Source: a virus (lineage: Duplodnaviria; Heunggongvirae; Uroviricota; Caudoviricetes). Taken from it: a stretch of DNA of 10,932 bases. The notes beneath the pieces were generated by a model. That model worked only from the letters and a program-made list of their open reading frames with translations. It did not search any database and was not told the origin of the DNA. This document shows, one piece after another, positions 2,232-10,932 of this stretch. Where the stretch lies: IMG/VR virus record IMGVR_UViG_3300020045_012956, positions 64,001-74,932 of that record; one strand, 5' to 3'. Within the stretch, counting starts at the first letter, position 1. Each line of letters begins with the position of its first letter. The translations under genes and the position numbers were made by a program.

Positions 2232-2235
2232 ACTA

Positions 2236-2261
2236 ACAGAGGGACATTAACGCCCCTCTGT
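2236..2261 (-). terminator. Intrinsic terminator hairpin T1 between convergent genes
   Basis: ACAGAGGG (2236-2243) / CCCTCTGT (2254-2261). On the minus strand the stem extends to 10 bp through G.U and C-G pairs and is followed by UAGUUU. On the + strand that position is an A.C mismatch and there is no U-tract. Confidence 0.7.
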
Positions 2262-2271
2262 GAAATAATAA

Positions 2272-2511
2272 CTAAAATAATTTATGACATTTTTCTTTTA
2301 GAATCTTTTTTGGAACTTCAAACTCATACTTTCCATTTTCTAATTGATTCCAAACTTTTTCAAAGTTATCAAAACATTCTAAAAAGTTTTCTAGTGATAT
2401 TTTACCAAAACGTTTATTGAATGTTTTATTTTTTGGGTTGTAGTCTGCATAAATCATAAAATTATCATTCTCACAACTACCATTATCTAATGAAATTAAT
2501 TCTATTCTCAT
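2272..2511 (-). CDS. Hypothetical phage protein (79 aa), probable early gene
   Basis: ATG start 5 nt after the stop of the upstream minus-strand gene; ends just before hairpin T1. No recognised motif. Confidence 0.65.
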   Translation of the reverse strand: MRIELISLDNGSCENDNFMIYADYNPKNKTFNKRFGKISLENFLECFDNFEKVWNQLENGKYEFEVPKKILKEKCHKLF

Positions 2512-2516
2512 GATTT

Positions 2517-2915
2517 TTATTCAAAAATCTCAATCAACTCATTTAATTTAAGATAAACTTGAAACATTCCATAACTGTAATTATCATTATAAATATAATT
2601 CCATAGTTTTTCTCTATACTTTTCAGGAACTATTTCAATATTTGAGTGTTTTTTAATAAAAATTTCAATTAAGTTTTCAATATATTGGTATCTTTCTTTC
2701 CAATTTTCCAACTCTTTATTATATTTATCTAATTTCTCATTATAAGAACCAAAATCATTAGCATATTCTAGAATTTCAATATGATTATGATTTTCTTTTA
2801 ATTTGGGTTCAATTGGTTTTTGAGGCTTTTCGTTTTGTAATTTTTCAAGTTCTTTTAATGTTTCATAAACTGAAAGATTCCAGTTTTCTACAATTTCTAA
2901 TGTTAACTTTTCCAT
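2517..2915 (-). CDS. Hypothetical phage protein (132 aa, helical, E/K-rich), probable early gene
   Basis: ATG with A-rich leader 26 nt downstream of a TAATTTTG -7 box. KPQKPIEPKL linker followed by a helical segment. No function recognised. Confidence 0.7.
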   Translation of the reverse strand: MEKLTLEIVENWNLSVYETLKELEKLQNEKPQKPIEPKLKENHNHIEILEYANDFGSYNEKLDKYNKELENWKERYQYIENLIEIFIKKHSNIEIVPEKYREKLWNYIYNDNYSYGMFQVYLKLNELIEIFE

Positions 2916-2941
2916 TTTATTTTCTTTTTAATTTCTTGTTA

Positions 2942-2975
2942 CAAAATTACATCTTTTAGTAATACGATTTACAAA
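2942..2975 (-). promoter_or_regulatory. Leftward Bacteroidota-type promoter, cassette C1
   Basis: Minus strand TTTG (2975-2972), 22 nt, TAATTTTG (2949-2942). Matches the TTTG / TAnnTTTG consensus, slightly longer than the usual 19-21 nt spacing. Confidence 0.7.
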
Positions 2976-3038
2976 AATTGTAAAATAAATTTACAAAACT
3001 TGTTTAACTATCTGAAAATCAATGATAATAATTTTTAT
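2942..3038. repeat. Dispersed regulatory cassette, copy C1 (-7 box, TTTAGTAATAC, two TTTACAA-N3-TTGTAAA-like palindromes)
   Basis: Aligns without gaps to 8180-8276 (79/97 identical by hand count). Palindromes at 2968-2984 and 2990-3006. Confidence 0.9.
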
Positions 3039-3059
3039 AAAATACTCGAAAATATTTTT

Positions 3060-3092
3060 TTTGTTTATCTAAATTATTTTTTACTATATTTG
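3060..3092 (+). promoter_or_regulatory. Rightward Bacteroidota-type promoter, cassette C1
   Basis: TTTG (3060-3063), 21 nt, TATATTTG (3085-3092); ATG 4 nt later. Confidence 0.7.
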
Positions 3093-3096
3093 CATC

Positions 3097-4062
3097 ATGT
3101 TAATTAATTGCTTAAAAAATATACTTGGATTCAAAGGATGCGGTAATAATTCATTTCAACTTGATTTGAATCAATTACACGGCTTTAATATTGAATCAGC
3201 ATCAAAAATAACACCTAAAGATCAAACAGCCGTTGAATTCATTAACAAACAAATTGAATACGCTATAACTCAATCTAATAATGATTTTTTAGGTAAAGTT
3301 CAAAATAACTTTATTGTTTCTCAATTCAATGAGTTTATACCTTACGGTTTATTTTCAGACTATCAAAATAATGCAATTGCACAAAATAGAGGGTTAAGCA
3401 TTCGCAAAGATGCTGCATACATTCAAAAAATATACATTCCAACTATCAAAATAAAAGTTAACAATAACATTACAACTAATATTTTAATTGTAGATGGATT
3501 TGAAACAACCCCCGTTTTAGTTACCCTAGTCGCAAATGTAGAAAATGAAATAACAATTAATTACACTGCAAAAACTGATAGTTTATTTATTCTAATTGAA
3601 GACACTTTTGGACAAATCAACTCATACACTGGAGATTTACCAAGTATAAACGGTTGTAAGTCTTGCGGTGGAAATAAGGGTTACAAAATAAATGATTGTA
3701 ATTTAACCGTTAAAGGGTGGAATGGAGTAACAGAAGACTCTAAAATATACGGTATTGAGGCCGTTATTACAACGGTTTGCAACTATGATAATATTTACTG
3801 TTTACTTGCAAATCAAACTAATCTAAAATATGTTTATTTATATAAGTTTGGAATTCTATTTTTCAAAGAATATTTAACAAGTGACAGATTAAACGAACAT
3901 ACAATTTATAACAAAGATAAATGTTTGTATTTAATTGAAAATTACGAAGTTGAATATCAAAAACAATGGGACATTTTCAACGAATCACTAAAAAACTTTC
4001 TCAATAAAATTAGTGATAATTGTTTGATATGTAGAGGCTTAAAATATGGTTATTCTTTATAA
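3097..4062 (+). CDS. Putative virion structural protein (possible head-tail adaptor), Cys-containing
   Basis: 321 aa. N-terminal CL-x3-LG-x-x-GC...LNxLxG pattern reminiscent of Bacteroidota phage structural proteins; CKSC and CLIC motifs. The adaptor call is contextual. Confidence 0.4.
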   Translation: MLINCLKNILGFKGCGNNSFQLDLNQLHGFNIESASKITPKDQTAVEFINKQIEYAITQSNNDFLGKVQNNFIVSQFNEFIPYGLFSDYQNNAIAQNRGLSIRKDAAYIQKIYIPTIKIKVNNNITTNILIVDGFETTPVLVTLVANVENEITINYTAKTDSLFILIEDTFGQINSYTGDLPSINGCKSCGGNKGYKINDCNLTVKGWNGVTEDSKIYGIEAVITTVCNYDNIYCLLANQTNLKYVYLYKFGILFFKEYLTSDRLNEHTIYNKDKCLYLIENYEVEYQKQWDIFNESLKNFLNKISDNCLICRGLKYGYSL

Positions 4063-4070
4063 TTAAAAAT

Positions 4071-4196
4071 ATGGCAAAAAATGTAATAAAACCGATGGTT
4101 TTCATTCAAAAACCAAAAGTAACACAACCATCACAAAAAATAAATACAACTCCAAAAACTGGAGGTTGTTCAACTTGTAATAAGAATAGAAAATGA
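4071..4196 (+). CDS. Small basic protein (41 aa) with C-terminal CxxC; absent from the ORF track
   Basis: MAKNVIKPMVFIQKPKVTQPSQKINTTPKTGGCSTCNKNRK*. Fills the gap exactly: starts 8 nt after the upstream stop with an A-rich leader, and its TGA overlaps the endolysin ATG (ATGA, 4193-4196). Confidence 0.7.
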   Translation: MAKNVIKPMVFIQKPKVTQPSQKINTTPKTGGCSTCNKNRK

Positions 4197-5083
4197 TACC
4201 CATTCAAAAAGGTGCAATAGGACCTAAAGTTTTAGAAATACAACTAGCATTAAAAAAGTCAGGTATCAATATTGATGCTGATTCTCAATTTGGTAATGAT
4301 ACCGAAAAGGCTGTTATTCAATTTCAGGAATTAAATAATTTAGAAGTCGATGGAATTGTAGGAGAACAAACCTATAATTTATTAGTTTTAGGTAAAAGAA
4401 TAGAAGTAAAAAAAGGTTCTTTGAATTGCGTTGACTTGGTTTATCATACAAATGATTATTACAAATCAATCAATAATAAGAATCAAATTTGTTTACACCA
4501 TACAGCAGGGCCCGCAAGTGCTAAAAATACCATTGATTGGTGGTTAACTGATATTAATTCAACGGGCACAGCCTTTGTTATAGGGGGTAAAGATGGTAAA
4601 AAGGACGGGGAAATAGTTGAGGCGCACCCTTCCGAAAATTGGCAATGGCATTTAGGAGTAGACCCTAAATTTTCAAATGGATTCTCAAATAGAGATAAAA
4701 ACGGGGTTATTTTAGATTCAAAATGTATTGGAATTGAAATTTGTAATTGGGGTTACTTGAATAAGTCAGGTAATAACTTTTTTAGTTATGCTGGTACAAT
4801 AGTAAATTCAAATGATGTTTGCGACTTAGGCAAAAAAATAAGAGGTAAACAATATTTTCAAAAATATACAGATAATCAAATTAATTCAACAAAAAAACTA
4901 TTGCTAGAATTAGCAGAAAAACACTCAATTGAATTGCATAAAACTTATGATTGGAGTTGGTTTGAGTTATCAAATGATGCTTTAAGTGGTAAAAGTGGGG
5001 TTTGGAATCATTGTAATTTTAGAAGTGATAAAATTGATATTTACCCACAACAAGAAATGTTAGATATGTTAAACAGTTTATAA
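4193..5083 (+). CDS. Endolysin: N-terminal peptidoglycan-binding domain (PG_binding_1) plus N-acetylmuramoyl-L-alanine amidase (Amidase_2)
   Basis: KGAIGPKVLEIQLAL...DADSQFGNDTEKAVIQFQ...LEVDGIVGEQT (PG-binding). ICLHHTAG, WQWHLG, IGIEICNWG, YTDNQI, HCNFRSDKIDIYPQ (Zn-amidase motifs). Confidence 0.9.
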   Translation: MIPIQKGAIGPKVLEIQLALKKSGINIDADSQFGNDTEKAVIQFQELNNLEVDGIVGEQTYNLLVLGKRIEVKKGSLNCVDLVYHTNDYYKSINNKNQICLHHTAGPASAKNTIDWWLTDINSTGTAFVIGGKDGKKDGEIVEAHPSENWQWHLGVDPKFSNGFSNRDKNGVILDSKCIGIEICNWGYLNKSGNNFFSYAGTIVNSNDVCDLGKKIRGKQYFQKYTDNQINSTKKLLLELAEKHSIELHKTYDWSWFELSNDALSGKSGVWNHCNFRSDKIDIYPQQEMLDMLNSL

Positions 5084-5094
5084 TAATAAAAAAA

Positions 5095-5394
5095 ATGAAA
5101 AAAGTAGATTATACACAAGCCATTGAGGCTCTTTTGAATAGTAAAATAGTTAAACGTTCAATACATCCAGAAGGAACGTTTATTTTTAGACAAGTTCCAA
5201 GTGAAATATCTAGTGATATTATTCCAAAAATGCAATCTTTGCCTCAATCTGTTAAAGATGAGTTTGCAAAAAGAGAATCTAAAAGTATAAAATATGATAA
5301 TCAATTTGCGATTGTTGATATTGATAATAATATACAAGGTTGGAAACCAGAACCGCAAGATTTTCTTGCAAAAGATTGGATAATTATTGAATAA
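5095..5394 (+). CDS. DUF2829 / Thoeris anti-defence 2 (Tad2)-like protein
   Basis: 99 aa. N-terminal QAIEALLNSKIVKR, central FIF...QSLPQSVK insertion, C-terminal GWKPEPQDFLAKDW, matching the family's ALEALK-G-KV-R ... GW-x-(P/A)S-x-x-D-x-LA-x-DW pattern (recalled). Confidence 0.8.
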   Translation: MKKVDYTQAIEALLNSKIVKRSIHPEGTFIFRQVPSEISSDIIPKMQSLPQSVKDEFAKRESKSIKYDNQFAIVDIDNNIQGWKPEPQDFLAKDWIIIE

Positions 5395-5404
5395 ATTTAT
5401 AAAA

Positions 5405-5623
5405 ATGGCAAAGTTAGTAAAATTAAAACACTTGAAAAGTGGTAGAATTACAGAATTTGAAGAACAATTTTGTATTAACCTTTTGAATCAAACAAAGGGA
5501 CAATTACCACAATATGAAATAGTTAAGGAAGTTGAAAAGGTAGTTGAAAAAACTATTGAACCTGAAAAGCCAAAAAAGGCTGAAAAAAAAGAAGCAATTG
5601 AACCAGAAATTAAAATTGATTAA
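5405..5623 (+). CDS. Hypothetical protein (72 aa) with K/E-rich disordered tail
   Basis: Start moved from the track's TTG at 5387 (which overlaps the upstream gene) to the in-frame ATG at 5405 preceded by ATAAAA. Confidence 0.65.
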   Translation: MAKLVKLKHLKSGRITEFEEQFCINLLNQTKGQLPQYEIVKEVEKVVEKTIEPEKPKKAEKKEAIEPEIKID

Positions 5624-5635
5624 TAAATAAATAAC

Positions 5636-6535
5636 ATGAGTAAAAAAGCAAAAGAAGTATTATTTAACTTAGGATTTGATGATGCAACTATTAATGCTAT
5701 TATGTCAGACGATCCTAATGCAGATTCTGGCAATTTAGCGCAAGTGTTTTTAGGTGGACAGTTTGAACTTTTCAAAAATCATAAAGACTACGGTGGAAAG
5801 ATCAAAAATGAAACTAGAAAAGAAGTTCAAGAAAAAAACAAGAAATCTTTAATTAAAGAATTTGGATTGAATGTTGAGGACGAAGGCAAAGAATGGCCTG
5901 AATTATTATTAGAAAGTAAAAAGGCTTATGAAAAGTCAGTGAGTGAGAAGTATGCTAATTTAACAGATACTGAAGCGAAGGTTGAGTTAAAAAACATGAA
6001 AATTCAATATGCAAAGTTAGAAGATGAAATTAAGCAATTGAAAGAGGTTGAAATACCTTTGCAAAAACAAACAGCAGAAAATCACATTAAACAAGAAAAA
6101 TTTAAGGAAAAACTTAAAAAACATTTGCTTAAAGGTGTTGAATTTGGTGCAATGTCTAACGAAGCTTTTGAAGAAAAGTATTTTGATTTGTATTATAGAA
6201 CATTAAATGAAAAATATGATGTTCTACAATCAAAAGATGGGGAATTTGAATTATGGGATAAAAGTGGAGATGGTAAAGTTTATGATGGTGCAAAACCAGT
6301 AACTCCAAAGATGGCATTTTTGAAAGAATTGGAGGCGGATAAACTATTAAAACAAGGTGTTTCAAACGACCCTAAAAACCCACCTGTAAGCACACCAACG
6401 CAAACGACTCAAACGAATAAACAAACGGTTGTAGTTGAAAATAACAAACCTAGCAACATGTTAGCACCACAAGGGGAAAAGAATGCTATGTATGCACAAA
6501 TAGAGGCTGCTAAGGCGTTGAAAAATAAAAAGTAA
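5636..6535 (+). CDS. Putative capsid scaffolding / assembly protein
   Basis: 299 aa, highly charged, with a long predicted coiled coil (EAKVELKNMKIQYAKLEDEIKQLKE), a P/T/Q-rich disordered tail and a terminal basic helix. This is the typical scaffold layout, but the call is inference. Confidence 0.5.
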   Translation: MSKKAKEVLFNLGFDDATINAIMSDDPNADSGNLAQVFLGGQFELFKNHKDYGGKIKNETRKEVQEKNKKSLIKEFGLNVEDEGKEWPELLLESKKAYEKSVSEKYANLTDTEAKVELKNMKIQYAKLEDEIKQLKEVEIPLQKQTAENHIKQEKFKEKLKKHLLKGVEFGAMSNEAFEEKYFDLYYRTLNEKYDVLQSKDGEFELWDKSGDGKVYDGAKPVTPKMAFLKELEADKLLKQGVSNDPKNPPVSTPTQTTQTNKQTVVVENNKPSNMLAPQGEKNAMYAQIEAAKALKNKK

Positions 6536-6558
6536 CTTAGTATTGTCATAAAATTTTT

Positions 6559-6598
6559 AAGCCGTTAGAATTGATTCTAACGGCTTTTATTTTTTTTA
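6559..6598 (+). terminator. Intrinsic terminator T2
   Basis: AAGCCGTTAGAA-TTGA-TTCTAACGGCTT, a 12-bp perfect stem followed by TTATTTTTTTT. Lies between convergent genes. Confidence 0.9.
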
Positions 6599-7435
6599 AT
6601 ATTTTGGTTTTGGTGGATTATTTTCTCTTTGTTTATCTGCTATTTCTTGCATTTTTATTTTTAAGTCGGGATTTCTTTTTAAATATCCTTGAATAGCATG
6701 TTGTGTACAATCATAATGTTTTGCAATAGATATTATACTAAATTCCTTTTTATAAATTGAAAGTATAACTTTATCTTCAAACATAATATCTAAATTCAAG
6801 TTTTTCTCTTTCTTTTTAGGTTTTACAACTTTTTCAACCATATTATTATCAATACAATATTTTGAAATTGTTAATCTGTTTATTTTCAAAAGTCTACCAA
6901 TTGCAGAGTATGAAAGTTTTTTATTTAGAAATGATTGTATTTTTGCTTTTAATGGATCACATTTAGTACTCTTAGACTTATTACCTAAAGGTCTACCCAA
7001 AACAACACCATCTGATTTTCTTTTCGCTAAGCCCTCTTTAGTTCTTTTTGAAATCATATCTCTTTCAATTTCAGCGGCTAATCCAAATGCAAAAGCCATT
7101 ACTTTACTTTGAATATTATTACCTAATTCGTAACCATCCTTAACTGTATAAACTTGACATTCATGCTTCATACAGTGTTCTAGAATTCGCATAACCATAA
7201 ATAAAGAGCGTCCAAGCCTTGAAATTTCAGAAGCAATAATAACATCTTTAGGTTTTATTTTCTTTAGCAATTTACCTAGTTGTCTTTCTTCAGGTTCTTT
7301 TGTTCCTGAAATACCATCATCAGAAATCCAAGTGTTAATTTCTAATCCTAAAGAAGTAGCTTTTTCAATGATTCCTATCTTTTGTCCCTCTACTTCTTGC
7401 TTATCTGTTGAAACTCTTATATAACCGTAAACCAT
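6596..7435 (-). CDS. Small serine recombinase (resolvase/invertase), Mpi-like, with extended C-terminus carrying two putative HTH motifs
   Basis: YGYIRVST (catalytic Ser9), GISG, EISRLGRS, IQSKVMAFAFGLAAEIERDMISKRTKEGL, GVVLGRP. Closely resembles the recalled Bacteroides Mpi sequence over about aa 1-154. HTH-like segments at about aa 164-194 and 222-254. Confidence 0.92.
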   Translation of the reverse strand: MVYGYIRVSTDKQEVEGQKIGIIEKATSLGLEINTWISDDGISGTKEPEERQLGKLLKKIKPKDVIIASEISRLGRSLFMVMRILEHCMKHECQVYTVKDGYELGNNIQSKVMAFAFGLAAEIERDMISKRTKEGLAKRKSDGVVLGRPLGNKSKSTKCDPLKAKIQSFLNKKLSYSAIGRLLKINRLTISKYCIDNNMVEKVVKPKKKEKNLNLDIMFEDKVILSIYKKEFSIISIAKHYDCTQHAIQGYLKRNPDLKIKMQEIADKQRENNPPKPKY

Positions 7436-7438
7436 TTT

Positions 7439-7774
7439 TTAACTATTAAAATAAGCTTGTCTAATACATTTTAATTCATAAAGCAATAGAAATAATTTAT
7501 TTTTAATTATATCATCTCTAGTCTCTATTAATTTTACAAGTTTATCGTTTCTAATATCTATTAGTTTGAATCCATCTGTAAAATCTCCATCATTACAATA
7601 TAACTTATTAAATTCTAAAGGTCTATAAAATAAGCAATTAGACCATTTATTAAATTTAAAATTAGCTATATCAAAAATATCTATTTCATTAAAAAAACTT
7701 TTATCTTTTTTTATAATAGTTAATGATGGATTTTGTCTATCAAAATTAACTATTGTATATGTTTTATTTTTCAT
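7439..7774 (-). CDS. Hypothetical protein (111 aa)
   Basis: ATG overlaps the upstream stop (TAATG); its stop is 3 nt before the recombinase ATG, giving a compact operon. Confidence 0.65.
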   Translation of the reverse strand: MKNKTYTIVNFDRQNPSLTIIKKDKSFFNEIDIFDIANFKFNKWSNCLFYRPLEFNKLYCNDGDFTDGFKLIDIRNDKLVKLIETRDDIIKNKLFLLLYELKCIRQAYFNS

Positions 7775-8136
7775 TACTTAACTATTTTGTATTGTGAATT
7801 TCCTAAGTCTCTAAAATCTTTTAATTCCTTTTTGTTAATGTTATTTGCACAATAAATTTGATCTTTTTGGTTTGATTCAAAATATAAAATATTTGCATTG
7901 AATTTTGAAATTAAAGAATCTTTTGTAACTAATTTTCTTTCAATTAATATTTCAAAAGCTTCAATTGTAGTTACATATTCAAATTTACCAATTGTAAATT
8001 TAACTAATTGATGAACTTTATTTTTACCATTTGAGAATAAAGCATTGTATTTCTTTTCCATGCTTTTTTCAATTTGTGCAAATTCATTTTTGCTTACTTT
8101 GTTGTTTGATGCGAACATTGTTAAATCTAATTTCAT
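7774..8136 (-). CDS. Hypothetical protein (120 aa), first gene of the recombinase operon
   Basis: ATG with A-rich leader 43 nt downstream of TATATTTG. No motif recognised. Confidence 0.7.
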   Translation of the reverse strand: MKLDLTMFASNNKVSKNEFAQIEKSMEKKYNALFSNGKNKVHQLVKFTIGKFEYVTTIEAFEILIERKLVTKDSLISKFNANILYFESNQKDQIYCANNINKKELKDFRDLGNSQYKIVK

Positions 8137-8148
8137 TTTCTTATTTCT

Positions 8149-8276
8149 TTAAGTCTTAGCTACATTGCTTTTGACATCACAAATATAGTGGGTTTAGTAA
8201 TACGATTTACAAAACTTGTAAAATATTTTTACAAGTTTTGTGTAACTTGTTGAAAATCAATGAGAATAATTTTTAT
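8149..8276. repeat. Dispersed regulatory cassette, copy C2
   Basis: 8149-8247 aligns without gaps to 9171-9269 (84/99 by hand count, including a 31-bp perfect match 8210-8240 / 9232-9262). Contains the inverted repeat ACAAAACTTGTAAAA-TAT-TTTTACAAGTTTTGT (8209-8241). Confidence 0.95.
8180..8213 (-). promoter_or_regulatory. Leftward promoter, cassette C2 (drives the recombinase operon)
   Basis: Minus strand TTTG (8213-8210), 22 nt, TATATTTG (8187-8180). Confidence 0.75.
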
Positions 8277-8300
8277 TTTTCTTTTATCAAATATTTTAAC

Positions 8301-8308
8301 TACCTTTG
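8301..8308 (+). promoter_or_regulatory. Rightward -7 box, cassette C2
   Basis: TACCTTTG with ATG 4 nt later. No canonical TTTG at -33; CTTTTATCAAA upstream is shared with C3. Confidence 0.6.
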
Positions 8309-8312
8309 TATT

Positions 8313-8813
8313 ATGAATTCGAAAACAGCATTAAAAGAAATAAACCAAGCTATTAAATTAAAGTTTCCTGAAGTTGAAAGACCTTTAGAACTTGAATTTG
8401 AGAAAGATATTTTAGTTTCAATTGATTCTAAAGAAAAATCAGTAAGTTTTGATGTTTTAACTTATTCTATGTATACTAGATATTTAGATGAGATTAGATT
8501 CATTGAAAAACCTAAATTTACTTCAAATCAATCTATTTTCTTAGCAAGTGCAAAGATTAGAACGGTTTTAATTGGTAAAAATAAAGATATTTATCAATTA
8601 GGGCATAAGTTAGTACAAATGCTTAATAACATAAAAATAAACAACATAACAGCTATTAAGCTAAAAGAAGTTAAAACAATGCATGATGTTTTGATTAAAG
8701 AAGAGTTTGTATTAAAAGAAAATGATTTATTTAAGGACGCAAAAACTGGTATAGGTGCAATTGATTATGAAATAGAATTTTATTTTGATTGTAATGATGA
8801 AAATTGTATTTGA
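8313..8813 (+). CDS. Putative tail terminator / completion-type protein (166 aa)
   Basis: Start moved from the track's TTG at 8238 (inside the cassette palindrome) to the ATG at 8313 after the -7 box. Size, alpha/beta pattern and terminal AIDYEIEF strand fit gpU/gp17-like folds; weak inference. Confidence 0.4.
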   Translation: MNSKTALKEINQAIKLKFPEVERPLELEFEKDILVSIDSKEKSVSFDVLTYSMYTRYLDEIRFIEKPKFTSNQSIFLASAKIRTVLIGKNKDIYQLGHKLVQMLNNIKINNITAIKLKEVKTMHDVLIKEEFVLKENDLFKDAKTGIGAIDYEIEFYFDCNDENCI

Positions 8814-8850
8814 AAAAAGCCGTTAGGATTTATTCTAACGGCTTTTATTA
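8813..8850. terminator. Bidirectional intrinsic terminator T3, near-identical to T2
   Basis: AAAAGCCGTTAG...CTAACGGCTTTT (8815-8846), with a T-tract on the + side and an A6 tract on the other. 31/33 nt identical to 6559-6591. Confidence 0.9.
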
Positions 8851-8851
8851 T

Positions 8852-9160
8852 TTATATTTTCTTTAACCAATAATGTTTGGTTTTTTCTTTAATAAAATCT
8901 CCATGATCTATTGATTTTTCACCAATATAAATTAAAGAATTTGCATCTTTCTTTTTGCAAATTTCATAACCTATTGATTTAATATAGTCTTTTTCTAATC
9001 CAGTAACGCAATTAGATTTTTCCCAAGCCCAAGTAAATTGAGATTCTTGTAAATCATTGCATAATTCAACTGATAGTATTTTAGCACCATTTGACTTATT
9101 ACGAATGCAATTAAGTGTAGTTTCTTTAACATCTGAATGAAATTGTTCTAATCGAGTCAT
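8852..9160 (-). CDS. Hypothetical protein (102 aa), probable early gene
   Basis: The track's GTG start at 9202 overlaps the -7 box, so the in-frame ATG at 9160 (MTRLEQF...) is preferred. Confidence 0.65.
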   Translation of the reverse strand: MTRLEQFHSDVKETTLNCIRNKSNGAKILSVELCNDLQESQFTWAWEKSNCVTGLEKDYIKSIGYEICKKKDANSLIYIGEKSIDHGDFIKEKTKHYWLKKI

Positions 9161-9170
9161 AAAAAAAATA

Positions 9171-9299
9171 TTAAGTCTTAGCCTTGTTGCTTTTGACATC
9201 ACAAAGATAAATGATTTAGTAATACAAAACGCAAAACTTGTAAAATATTTTTACAAGTTTTGCGTAACTAATTGATTATTAGTTAAATAATTTTTAATT
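9171..9299. repeat. Dispersed regulatory cassette, copy C3
   Basis: Offset 1022 bp from C2. Inverted repeat ACGCAAAACTTGTAAAA-TAT-TTTTACAAGTTTTGCGT (9229-9265). Confidence 0.95.
9202..9235 (-). promoter_or_regulatory. Leftward promoter, cassette C3
   Basis: Minus strand TTTG (9235-9232), 22 nt, TATCTTTG (9209-9202). Confidence 0.75.
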
Positions 9300-9320
9300 T
9301 TCTTTTATCAAATAAAACAT

Positions 9321-9328
9321 TAACTTTG
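9321..9328 (+). promoter_or_regulatory. Rightward -7 box, cassette C3
   Basis: TAACTTTG, 10 nt upstream of the ATG at 9339. Confidence 0.6.
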
Positions 9329-9338
9329 CAAAAAAAAC

Positions 9339-9902
9339 ATGAATTTATATCTAATATTAACATTTTACGCTTTTGCGTCTGCTGGTTTGTCAAACTTACT
9401 TAATTTTTGTTTTCAAGAAGGTTCAATCTTTAAGTTTTATTTGCCTTTTTTATCAAAATTGATACATTTTAAGCATTATAAAGAATTGAAAAATAGTATT
9501 TTAGAATTCAAAGATTCATTGAAACACTATGAAAATTTGATAATTAACTTAAATATTGATAGTTCAAATGATATTAAAGTTAATGATTGTGTAGTTTGCG
9601 ACAAAGACAATATACATGAAATAGAATATAATACTAAATTCAATGAATATTCAAGTAAAATTGGATATTATAAGCTTTTAATTTATGAGAATGAAATAAA
9701 GTTAAATTCTAGTGAATATTGGATTGAGAAAGGCTCAAAACATGTTTTATTTTATCCTTTGGGTTACTGTTTATATTGCATGTCAGTTTGGATAAGTTTT
9801 ATTTTCTTTATAATCATTGCACTTACTTACGATTATTCATTTATTTACTTATTACCATTTTCATTTGTAAGCTTTAATTTTGTTCTACTTACAAATAAAT
9901 AA
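9339..9902 (+). CDS. Membrane protein with a DUF1360-like CxxC-x-S-x-W motif
   Basis: Hydrophobic N-terminal helix, charged middle region with CVVC, then YPLGYCLYCMSVW and two C-terminal hydrophobic segments. Family call from recall. Confidence 0.5.
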   Translation: MNLYLILTFYAFASAGLSNLLNFCFQEGSIFKFYLPFLSKLIHFKHYKELKNSILEFKDSLKHYENLIINLNIDSSNDIKVNDCVVCDKDNIHEIEYNTKFNEYSSKIGYYKLLIYENEIKLNSSEYWIEKGSKHVLFYPLGYCLYCMSVWISFIFFIIIALTYDYSFIYLLPFSFVSFNFVLLTNK

Positions 9903-9926: not shown

Positions 9927-9934
9927 TAAATTTG
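9927..9934 (+). promoter_or_regulatory. Possible -7 box for the last gene
   Basis: TAAATTTG in the 47-nt intergenic gap, 15 nt before the ATG at 9950. Confidence 0.45.
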
Positions 9935-9949
9935 CAGAAAATCTACAAT

Positions 9950-10932
9950 ATGGCAACATGCGAATTATGTAATTGTTTTGATTTGGGGTGTTCTCCAAAT
10001 TGTTGCAATTTTGAATTTATACTCAATGATACCCCCGTTTTAGCAACTCAAGACGGTTTACATATTTTATCTTACATTCAAGAGGGTCAAGACAATAAAA
10101 ACGGTGGATTACAGTTTTTAATTGGTGACCCTATTGTTTTTCCTGCAAGTTGGTTTAATTCTCAAGGTTTAGTTAAATTTCAATTAACTTTGCCGGATGG
10201 TGAAATTTTCACTTATCAAACTTACACATGTTTTGAGTTTGAAAGAATCATTTCAACAACACCCGAAACAAGCGAAAGTATTCAATGTTTAGGTTCAAAT
10301 AATCCAAATGACATTTGTACAGTTTGCGACCTTTTGGCAGCTTTAGGAGTAAGTTCACAATTATTAGTAGAAATACGCAATAATACTTTATTTCTTGATA
10401 CTCCACTTTCTCAATTAGGGAAAGAAGCGACTTTACAAGACATTTTAACTGCTATTAATGGTAGTGGTGGTAATTATGCCCTAGAATCTACTTTGCAGCT
10501 TGTTTTAACGGCTTTGAGTGGAATTGCATTAGATAGTACTTTGCAAAGTATTTTAACTGCTTTAGGTACAGGATTAGCACAAGAAACAACATTACAAACA
10601 GTTGCAAAAGAAACCTCTTTGCAGGCTGTTATAACGGCTTTAAGTGGATTGAGTACAGAAACTACATTAGGTAGTGTTTTAACTCAATTACAAAACTTAA
10701 ATTTAGTTGACTTTAGTACAGAAACAACCTTACAAGCTTTATTATTAGCTATTCAAAATTTGCCCGCTGGTGGGGACGCTACGGCCGCAAATCAAGTACT
10801 TGAAATTGCAGAACTAACAACACTAAACGCAAAGGATTTTAGTACAGAAACAACTTTACAAAGCGTTTTAGCAGCCTTATTACTTTCAGGGCAAGAATTA
10901 ACCCTACAAAGCATTTTAACTGCTTTAGTACC
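9950..10932 (+). CDS. 3'-truncated repeat-rich, putative fibre / coiled-coil virion protein with Cys-rich N-terminus; absent from the ORF track
   Basis: Open from ATG 9950 to the window end (327 codons, no stop): MATCELCNCFDLGCSPNCC..., then nine E-T-T-L-Q-x-(I/V)-L-T-A-L-type repeats from 10421, plus GDATAANQ. Confidence 0.75.
   Translation, partial: MATCELCNCFDLGCSPNCCNFEFILNDTPVLATQDGLHILSYIQEGQDNKNGGLQFLIGDPIVFPASWFNSQGLVKFQLTLPDGEIFTYQTYTCFEFERIISTTPETSESIQCLGSNNPNDICTVCDLLAALGVSSQLLVEIRNNTLFLDTPLSQLGKEATLQDILTAINGSGGNYALESTLQLVLTALSGIALDSTLQSILTALGTGLAQETTLQTVAKETSLQAVITALSGLSTETTLGSVLTQLQNLNLVDFSTETTLQALLLAIQNLPAGGDATAANQVLEIAELTTLNAKDFSTETTLQSVLAALLLSGQELTLQSILTALV

Follow-up and report, generated by a model that had tools for sequence, protein, structure and literature searches.

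What are the backward gene modules that interrupt the plus-strand genes at the end of the virus record IMGVR_UViG_3300020045_012956, and by what route does their content change? The window analysed here, a stretch of 10,932 nucleotides (nt), is the last 10.9 kb (64001-74932) of this complete 74,932-bp record of an uncultured lake-water phage, in which nearly all genes lie on the plus strand. An earlier note on this DNA had described three modules in the window, each made of a hairpin, minus-strand cargo genes and a cassette of divergent promoters, and had proposed that their conserved ends allow the cargo to be swapped. From the sequence comparisons described below, we consider it likely that these modules, together with a fourth found elsewhere in the genome, are moron-like, self-contained backward accessory units at fixed intergenic sites (referred to as slots), and that much of their turnover takes place through shared cassettes.

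The anatomy of modules A, B and C agreed with the earlier description, coordinates included: each has a stable hairpin, minus-strand open reading frames (ORFs), a homologous cassette and TAnnTTTG boxes on both strands. The elements are as follows, with protein lengths in amino acids (aa).

2236-2261, unstranded: hairpin of module A, GC-rich, unrelated in sequence to hairpins T2 and T3 (-13.7 kcal/mol on the plus strand, -17.7 on the minus strand, z -5.1)
2272-2511, minus: cargo gene A1, 79 aa, an ORFan without Pfam or PHROG family, singleton 90% cluster, absent from relatives L171 and L174
2517-2915, minus: cargo gene A2, 132 aa, an ORFan adjoining cassette C1, closest relatives only 36-37% identical
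2913-3096, unstranded: cassette C1, with a minus-strand -7 box at 2942-2949, GTATTAC and operator palindromes at 2968-3006 (E=5.9e-14, profile search)
3085-3092, plus: plus-facing -7 box of C1, 4 nt before the ATG at 3097
6559-6590, unstranded: hairpin T2 of the AAGCCGTTAG...CTAACGGCTT family (-17.4 kcal/mol, z -5.7), found by terminator scan
6596-7435, minus: cargo gene B1, serine recombinase, 279 aa (Pfam Resolvase, E=2e-32)
7439-7774, minus: cargo gene B2, 111 aa, an ORFan without family; an 84-aa gene instead in L177 and L182
7774-8136, minus: cargo gene B3, 120 aa, adjoining cassette C2, with only 2 representative relatives among 1.8 billion proteins
8134-8312, unstranded: cassette C2, with a minus-strand -7 box at 8180-8187 and operator at 8206-8244 (E=9.5e-19, profile search)
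8301-8308, plus: plus-facing -7 box of C2, 4 nt before the ATG at 8313
8313-8813, plus: resident 166-aa gene between slots B and C, not cargo, 83-100% conserved at the aa level in L034-L037 and L199
8815-8848, unstranded: hairpin T3, stem flanked by an A-tract and a T-tract (-20.4 kcal/mol on the plus strand, -16.4 on the minus strand, z -6.2 and -6.7)
8852-9160, minus: cargo gene of module C, 102 aa, an ORFan without family
9158-9338, unstranded: cassette C3, with a minus-strand -7 box at 9202-9209 and operator at 9228-9266 (E=1.3e-18, profile search)
9321-9328, plus: plus-facing -7 box of C3, 10 nt before the ATG at 9339

The three hairpins are predicted to be stable, with folding energies between -13.7 and -20.4 kcal/mol and z-scores between -5.1 and -7.0. 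A terminator scan called seven sites, as against 2.6 expected, and all three hairpins are among them. The module A hairpin was called as a minus-strand terminator at the 3' end of its cargo, and T2 is a predicted terminator for both the upstream plus-strand gene and the 3' end of module B; T3, having an A-tract before and a T-tract after the stem, is therefore predicted to be able to terminate in both directions. T2 and T3 are homologous (85% identity across 47 nt; by direct reading, 31 of 33 positions agree), and C1, C2 and C3 form one repeat family, its copies lying at 2911-3096, 8149-8312 and 9171-9338 (in comparison with C2, E=8.6e-39 for C3 and 1.2e-24 for C1). The start of the module C cargo was taken at 9160 because the C3 leader is homologous to that of C2. 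Except for the recombinase, no cargo gene belongs to a family in Pfam or PHROG, and the protein clusters of the cargo genes are singletons or tiny. The GC content of the cargo is 24.1%, as against 29.1% for the resident plus-strand genes, the recombinase (28.1%) being the exception. The earlier count of three was right for the window and too low for the genome, since a fourth module of the same layout, D, lies at genome position 32.3-33.0 kb, with a hairpin of the T2/T3 family and a minus-facing cassette. In modules A to D alike, hairpin and cassette stand on opposite sides of the cargo, 0.3-1.6 kb apart.

Searches of deposited phages by megablast and tblastn, using the window and two flank proteins, gave no match, and a related-locus search using the 321-aa, 299-aa and 166-aa proteins found no relatives in viral (IMG/VR) or JGI metagenome contigs. 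The palindrome pattern occurred at three loci in viral contigs, which have no proteins in common with the phage. The hairpin pattern occurred at 133 loci in viral and metagenome contigs, none with a cassette or synteny, and these were set aside as chance matches to a generic hairpin. Relatives were found by exact-protein and 90%-cluster look-ups as contigs in ENA, Logan and JGI (numbered with the prefix L), sharing blocks of 75-96% DNA identity with the phage.

As predicted for A, B and C, and also at D, the same flanking genes enclose different cargo in relatives; invariant cargo was the rule at none of the slots. At slot A, where the phage has 79-aa and 132-aa genes and a GC-rich hairpin, L171 has a 116-aa gene and L174 one of 75 aa, and the hairpin in both is of the AAGCCGTTAG family. 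At slot B, which here holds the recombinase and the 111-aa and 120-aa genes, hairpin T2 is kept in L171 and L033, followed by a 101-aa gene in the former and a 110-aa gene in the latter; in L036 and L037 a 256-aa gene adjoins the cassette, and contig L036 starts at the hairpin, the same hairpin standing at its left end. L177 carries a longer block at this slot, with an 84-aa gene in place of the 111-aa gene and additional genes after the recombinase. At slot C, the 102-aa gene gives way to 72-aa and 94-aa genes on six contigs (L034 and five more), to the 120-aa gene in L199 and to yet another sequence in L037, though the flanking protein of L037 is identical to that of L034. At slot D, L197 retains the 100-aa gene beside the cassette, and L195 and L196 have a 78-aa gene instead. 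Slots A, B and D were occupied in every relative found; for slot C there is weak evidence of an empty state, in which one 252-bp contig from runs X2/X3, 97% identical over 8587-8811, joins 8811 to 9322. Altogether, at least 16 unrelated cargo genes occupy the four slots across the sampled relatives; an all-against-all comparison found no homology between any of the slot A-D cargoes, and a Pfam search of ten cargo genes of relatives gave nothing credible. The relatives' sequences thus confirm slots of swappable content with conserved regulatory ends.

Since the cassettes and hairpins are repeated, the variation might have arisen if assemblers had joined unrelated sequences at these repeats. Contigs L033, L036, L171, L172 and L199 do begin or end in a cassette or hairpin, indicating that the repeats break assemblies. 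However, the 72-aa and 94-aa cargo of slot C was found on six ENA contigs from six sample records, and L171/L172 and L195/L196 agree between JGI and Logan. Whole slots including both unique flanks are spanned by L171 (slot A), L034, L035, L174, and L195 and L197 (slot D), and the cargo ORFs are intact, starting and ending exactly at the regulatory elements. An assembly artefact is therefore barely credible as the source of the cargo variation.

The cassettes had been regarded as dedicated plug-in ends of the modules, a view that did not survive the scan of the whole genome that the earlier note had proposed. The scan (BLAST, palindrome scan and profile search) identified seven full copies in the 74.9-kb genome, at 26.0k (plus), 32.8k (minus, in module D), 42.9k (plus) and 56.6k (plus) and as C1, C2 and C3 (all minus), and eight partial matches on the plus strand, each before a plus-strand gene. 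All four of the minus-facing full copies (C1, C2, C3 and 32.8k) head cargo. The same cassette, facing plus at 26.0k, 42.9k and 56.6k, heads small-ORF operons in the replication region without cargo, and at 26.0k and 56.6k a terminator hairpin is located directly upstream of it. Fifteen units from the phage and its relatives, when oriented by the direction of transcription, align from the operator to the ATG in the order palindromic operator (two ACAA-N3-TTGT palindromes, 22 bp apart), GTATT, -7 box, A-rich leader (AAATAAGAAAATG) and start codon; the repeat is therefore the standard regulated expression cassette of the phage. Judged by its sequence, it is a general operator-promoter-leader design, not special to the three slots. 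In seven units, those of plus-strand operons included, the spacing between this palindrome and the -7 box downstream of it is constant, as expected for operator geometry and not for a crossover site.

The TAnnTTTG box agrees with the promoter consensus of Bacteroidetes (PMC10309648). Intergenic DNA makes up 11% of the genome and holds 38 of the 120 such boxes on the plus strand, at 4-26 nt from the start codon that follows, an enrichment on the coding strand. A scan for sigma-70 promoters gave a number at background level (76 found, 67.7 expected). The host is probably a freshwater bacterium of Flavobacteriia-like type. A reading of the cassettes as transposons or MITE-like elements (miniature inverted-repeat transposable elements) was rejected because each copy holds the same position in relatives and a fixed distance to the start codon.

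Three further observations concern the cassettes and similar intergenic repeats. The cargo leaders of C2, C3 and the relative 1 cassettes (relative 1 being the source of L171 and L199) have in common a 17-nt insertion (AAGTCTTAGC...TTGCTTTTGACATCAC; window 8134-8180 and 9158-9202), which is missing from C1, cassette D and the relative 2 cassettes and has no Rfam match. In the phage genome (G000) at 39515-39815 (L179:19515-19815), the upstream part of a cassette is inverted and the -7 box CAAAGATA on the plus strand points towards two terminator hairpins at a distance of only about 40-100 nt, and no ORF lies in between; by its layout this could be an emptied slot or the source of a short non-coding transcript. 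The intergenic region at G000 27925-28215 (L179:7925-8215) carries a different repeat family: two copies of ATTATGCTGCTATAGTGGCACAATATT, along with GCTGCTAAAA motifs and, ahead of the gene at 28206, the palindrome TGCACAAT...ATTGTGCA.

How, then, is the cargo exchanged? At the left side, homology with the relatives breaks exactly at the stop codon of the upstream gene in slot A and just 3' of the hairpin stem in slots B and C (at slot C just 3' of the T3 stem in L034, L037 and L199); at the right side, it is picked up again at the start codon of the cargo or within the cassette. The left hairpin had been taken for a fixed end of each module, but at slot A it differs between the phage and its relatives, and the terminator there therefore travels with the cargo. 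The comparison of C1 with L171 showed 73% identity in the cargo-side half of the cassette and 96% in the gene-side half, against a background of 91-95%, placing the swap boundary near the palindrome. Moreover, the cargo-side halves group by lineage and not by slot, with 74-80% identity within a lineage (74% between slots B and C of the phage, 80% between slot B of L036 and slot C of L034) and 40-57% for the same slot across lineages (57% between the phage and L036 at slot B, 40% between the phage and L034 at slot C). The slot B cassette of relative 1 is a mosaic of C2 and C3, in which a clustered C3-type patch covers the operator on a C2 backbone (7 runs in 49 informative sites, P=0.0002 by shuffling). 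The 26k intergenic region, consisting of terminator and cassette, is an island of 92-97% identity between non-homologous DNA in comparisons with both L195 and L197.

One cargo gene was detected in a second slot. Contigs L199 and L171 come from the same sample (relative 1). L199 shows the order cassette, 166-aa gene (identical protein), T3 hairpin, minus-strand 120-aa gene and cassette again, and its two ends are identical over about 125 nt. Its 120-aa gene matches the slot B gene 7774-8136 of the phage at 115 of 120 residues and 94% of nt. In L171, T2 is followed by the 101-aa gene and then the cassette. From the two contigs together the order T2-[101]-C-166-T3-[120]-C follows, the slot B gene standing in slot C along with its cassette. 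A joint 8847->7769 in run X1 is the same junction as that of L199, probably from the same sample.

The mosaic cassette, the lineage grouping, the 26k island and the cargo gene in a second slot are signs of exchange between cassettes, but several other findings weigh against giving the cassettes this role, and most of these are what would be expected if cassettes and hairpins were fixed regulatory sites, the cargo being swapped by generic short-homology or illegitimate recombination and the passive ends being kept by selection for the neighbouring genes. Between the phage and L195, 19 indels or replacements were counted in 22 kb, of which 14 are at ordinary gene junctions, often with overlaps of 7-16 nt, and five at a cassette or hairpin; in the early region the excess of cassettes as breakpoints is not significant. 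In the late region, one accessory gene is itself such an indel:

5095-5394, plus: Tad2-like accessory gene (Pfam Tad2-like, E=5e-9)

This gene is absent from L171, L172 and L174, is present in L033, and is flanked by junction repeats of 12-20 nt, TTTATAAAAAT(A)AAATG, without a cassette. L174 carries at a different junction an Acb2/Tad1-like gene (L174:1909-2142), flanked by AAAATA(T)ATGGCAAA, again without a cassette. Taken together, the 14 indels and these two genes indicate that cassettes are not needed for turnover. Furthermore, breakpoints lie at the edges of homology in any replacement, so that sharp breakpoints alone are no proof of recombination there; the slot A hairpin is not conserved; the contig with the possibly empty slot C reaches only 27 nt past its joint, which shows microhomology of 2-3 nt only; the cassettes also head operons without cargo; and no cargo other than the 120-aa gene recurs in a second slot. 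L199 can also be read as a circular permutation of 120aa-C2-166aa-T3, its linear placement depending on the combination with L171, and its arrangement is thus a possible circle or tandem duplication of that segment. The in-register junctions predicted earlier (C2xC3, 1022 bp; C1xC2, 5238 bp; T2xT3, 2258 bp) were not seen in contigs of three runs (X1-X3), a weak test, since contigs drop rare variants and the absence of such junctions says little. Three joints that were seen in these contigs (2932->8266, 8275->9201 and 4352->9471) are out of register with sides of 21-26 nt and were discarded as noise. Finally, the activity of promoters and terminators and the timing of expression are inferred from sequence.

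Passive ends, however, do not account for the C2/C3 mosaic and the lineage grouping of cargo-side halves, which indicate that the copies exchange sequence, nor for the slot A boundary inside the cassette, nor for a cargo gene that changed slots along with its cassette. In the otherwise conserved late region, moreover, two of the three variable loci of L171 are cassette slots. Fixed and passive regulatory sites are accordingly an unlikely explanation of the slots, though one with a real minority chance, and recombination at the conserved ends is supported, not proven, as the cause of turnover.

Two side observations touch on this general mosaicism. Between 20.5 and 42.7 kb of G000 the mosaicism relative to L195 is extreme, with shared blocks 91-96% identical, and the losses include the minus-strand genes 24102-24704 and 27603-27932. 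An Acb2/Tad1-hairpin gene occurs also in an unrelated phage contig, L182 (12454-12527).

Could the serine recombinase of module B move the modules instead? The earlier note had pointed to this gene, and it is intact, but in relatives it is no part of the machinery. The 279-aa product is a small serine recombinase, with the Pfam Resolvase domain at residues 2-144 (E=2e-32) and an intact YIRVSTDKQ motif, which can be aligned with Gin invertase 4m6f and gamma-delta resolvase. Slot B of L171, L033 and L036 lacks this gene. A copy in the unrelated contig L173 (8762-9654) shows 96% nt and 99% aa identity but has no cassette and lies in 36% GC; the match (window 6596-7486, G000 70596-71486) takes in the ORF together with 50 nt of upstream sequence, which belong to the 3' end of the 111-aa gene, and stops exactly at the stop codon, which an HNH_3 gene then adjoins. 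In sequence this copy looks like a recently transferred, free-standing mobile gene. The copies in L177 and L182 are 90-94% identical in aa and belong to a recurrent block (L182:720-2167; L177:3-1462; L186), made of a 118/122-aa homologue of the 120-aa gene (67%), the 84-aa gene and the recombinase. In L182, a different phage, this block is convergent with portal-like and other structural genes and is part of a backward island of 7-8 genes.

On this sequence evidence, the recombinase is mobile cargo, not machinery. A model in which palindromes or hairpins serve as res-, gix- or attC-like sites, at which this recombinase inserts, excises or inverts the modules, can point to the intact gene in module B, to the palindromic sites present as direct and inverted repeats at C2/C3 and T2/T3, and to the reading of L199 as a circle. 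It is nevertheless highly improbable: the three relatives without the recombinase at slot B have retained cassettes and hairpins and vary in cargo nonetheless, the ORF for this enzyme is a mobile gene in its own right (without a cassette in L173, inside a different block in L182), the palindrome-to-box distance fits operators, and the swap boundaries lie at no constant position within the palindrome. An integron would have its recombinase conserved beside the cassette array, and here it is absent from slot B of those three contigs; a combined scheme, in which the palindromes double as operators and as sites of the module recombinase and allow integron-like exchange and mini-circles (120aa-C2-166aa-T3) in the late region, would be a long shot. 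As recombination sites, the palindromes and hairpins are no more than candidates, and their geometry fits operators and terminators.

Returning to self-contained units that turn over through shared cassettes, the following mode of action may be proposed. Each module would be driven from a minus-facing copy of the standard expression cassette, and the cargo transcript would end at the intrinsic terminator hairpin, which would also stop the upstream plus-strand transcript; the outward second -7 box in the same intergenic region would then re-initiate transcription of the plus-strand genes. Because the same operator cassette heads plus-strand operons in the small-ORF and replication region, the cargo may be co-regulated with the early/middle class by a putative operator-binding protein, a regulator that we infer from the conserved operator. 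The slots are hypervariable, and much of their turnover would come about by homologous recombination and gene conversion within the cassettes that they share, at times also within the common family of hairpins; this exchange would act on top of a high general rate of indels at ordinary junctions.

The closest known counterpart, as already suggested, is the PeSL (promoter-early stem-loop), a mobile regulatory cassette of T4-type phages and a repeated composite motif of about 100 bp, with an early promoter and a stem-loop, located before ORFans; PeSLs bound indels between close relatives, recombine to shuffle genes and form mini-circles (Arbiol et al. 2010, PMC2839356; Comeau et al. 2014, PMC4122927). 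The analogy is apt because the cassettes, too, show signs of sequence exchange, namely a cargo gene in another slot with its cassette, a mosaic cassette and grouping by lineage. In common with PeSLs, the motif here is a repeated regulatory element of about 100 bp with a host-type promoter (15 aligned units; 7 full and 8 partial copies), stands directly before ORFans, bounds replacements between close relatives (slots A-D and the 26k island, though not 14 of the 19 indels), has a chimeric form suggestive of recombination between copies (C2/C3), and leaves each shuffled gene to bring or find its own promoter and terminator. A PeSL-like composite, with the terminator directly upstream of the cassette, is found here only at the plus-facing copies 26.0k and 56.6k. 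Unlike PeSLs, modules A-D have no stem-loop in the same motif, the promoter and terminator being at opposite ends of a backward unit, so that no single ORFan is enclosed by two copies of the motif. The phage also belongs to a different group with no shared ancestry, uses a Bacteroidota-type TAnnTTTG promoter instead of sigma-70 boxes, has a long palindromic operator in its cassette, and carries 7 to 15 copies as against about 50 for PeSL. As to mini-circles, contig L199 fits a linear or a circular order. In view of the lack of a match among deposited phages, the background level of sigma-70 promoters and the Bacteroidota-type boxes, the likeness to PeSLs is one of analogy, not membership.

The modules may also be compared with morons, reportedly described for lambdoid and HK97-type phages by Juhala, Hendrix and colleagues in 2000 as extra genes with their own promoter and terminator between conserved neighbours. 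Like morons, the cargo genes are extra genes flanked by their own predicted promoter (-7 box) and terminator (hairpin), differ from their flanks in base composition, vary among relatives and mostly lack an assigned function. In contrast to morons, the promoters of different units are homologous copies of the regulated promoter of the phage itself, replacement is seen rather than presence and absence (the possible empty site being represented by the one short contig), and there is no sign of lysogeny or of prophage expression. Conserved boundary (linker) sequences between modules of lambdoid phages are said to serve as crossover points between unrelated DNA (Clark and coworkers, 2001, on HK620). 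The Tad2 and Acb2-like indels with their junction repeats of 12-20 nt resemble such linkers; the cassettes are unlike them in being far longer, functional promoter/operator units that recur within one genome. A report on halovirus HF2 describes a repeated intergenic sequence family that acts as promoters (PMC8707807), in likeness to the family found here, although HF2 is an archaeal virus. A literature search found no description of such an architecture in a phage with Bacteroidota-type promoters.

The GC content of the record is 27%, and its terminal repeat is 121 bp long. Packaging and structural genes, among them those for the large terminase and a virion structural protein, occupy 0-21 kb of the genome, and small ORFs with replication and recombination genes (Erf, primase/helicase and SNF2/methylase-type helicase) occupy about 21-60 kb. 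The window comes next, and on the circular map it adjoins the structural region. The flanking genes of the modules had been called virion genes, a label that is unproven because the identified plus-strand flank genes are those for an endolysin and the Tad2-like protein, most of the others having no family in Pfam or PHROG. For the 120-aa cargo protein and the 321-aa and 299-aa flank proteins, no function emerged from protein-atlas searches, which yielded sub-threshold leads to scaffold/DUF6651 only for the last of the three; no Rfam family was found within the window. The last ORF of the window (9932-10930, continuing across the terminal repeat) contains repeats of roughly 126 nt (42 aa) with the motif T-L-Q-x-[IV]-L-T-A, and its homologue in L189 is at least 818 aa long without a matching family; it is probably a tail fibre.

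The finding extends the shuffling of promoter/terminator cassettes, known from T4-type phages, to a phage with Bacteroidota-type promoters and to backward units embedded in the lysis and probable tail region. It is a clear new instance of a style of gene shuffling already known in phages and does not amount to a new kind of system; it offers a compact example of an uncultured freshwater phage lineage that has regulated sockets for fast-changing accessory genes. The slots are a promising source of new host-takeover or anti-defence genes. Tad2-like and Acb2/Tad1-like genes, too, are gained and lost in this lineage, and the shared operator points to a phage regulon that can be tested.

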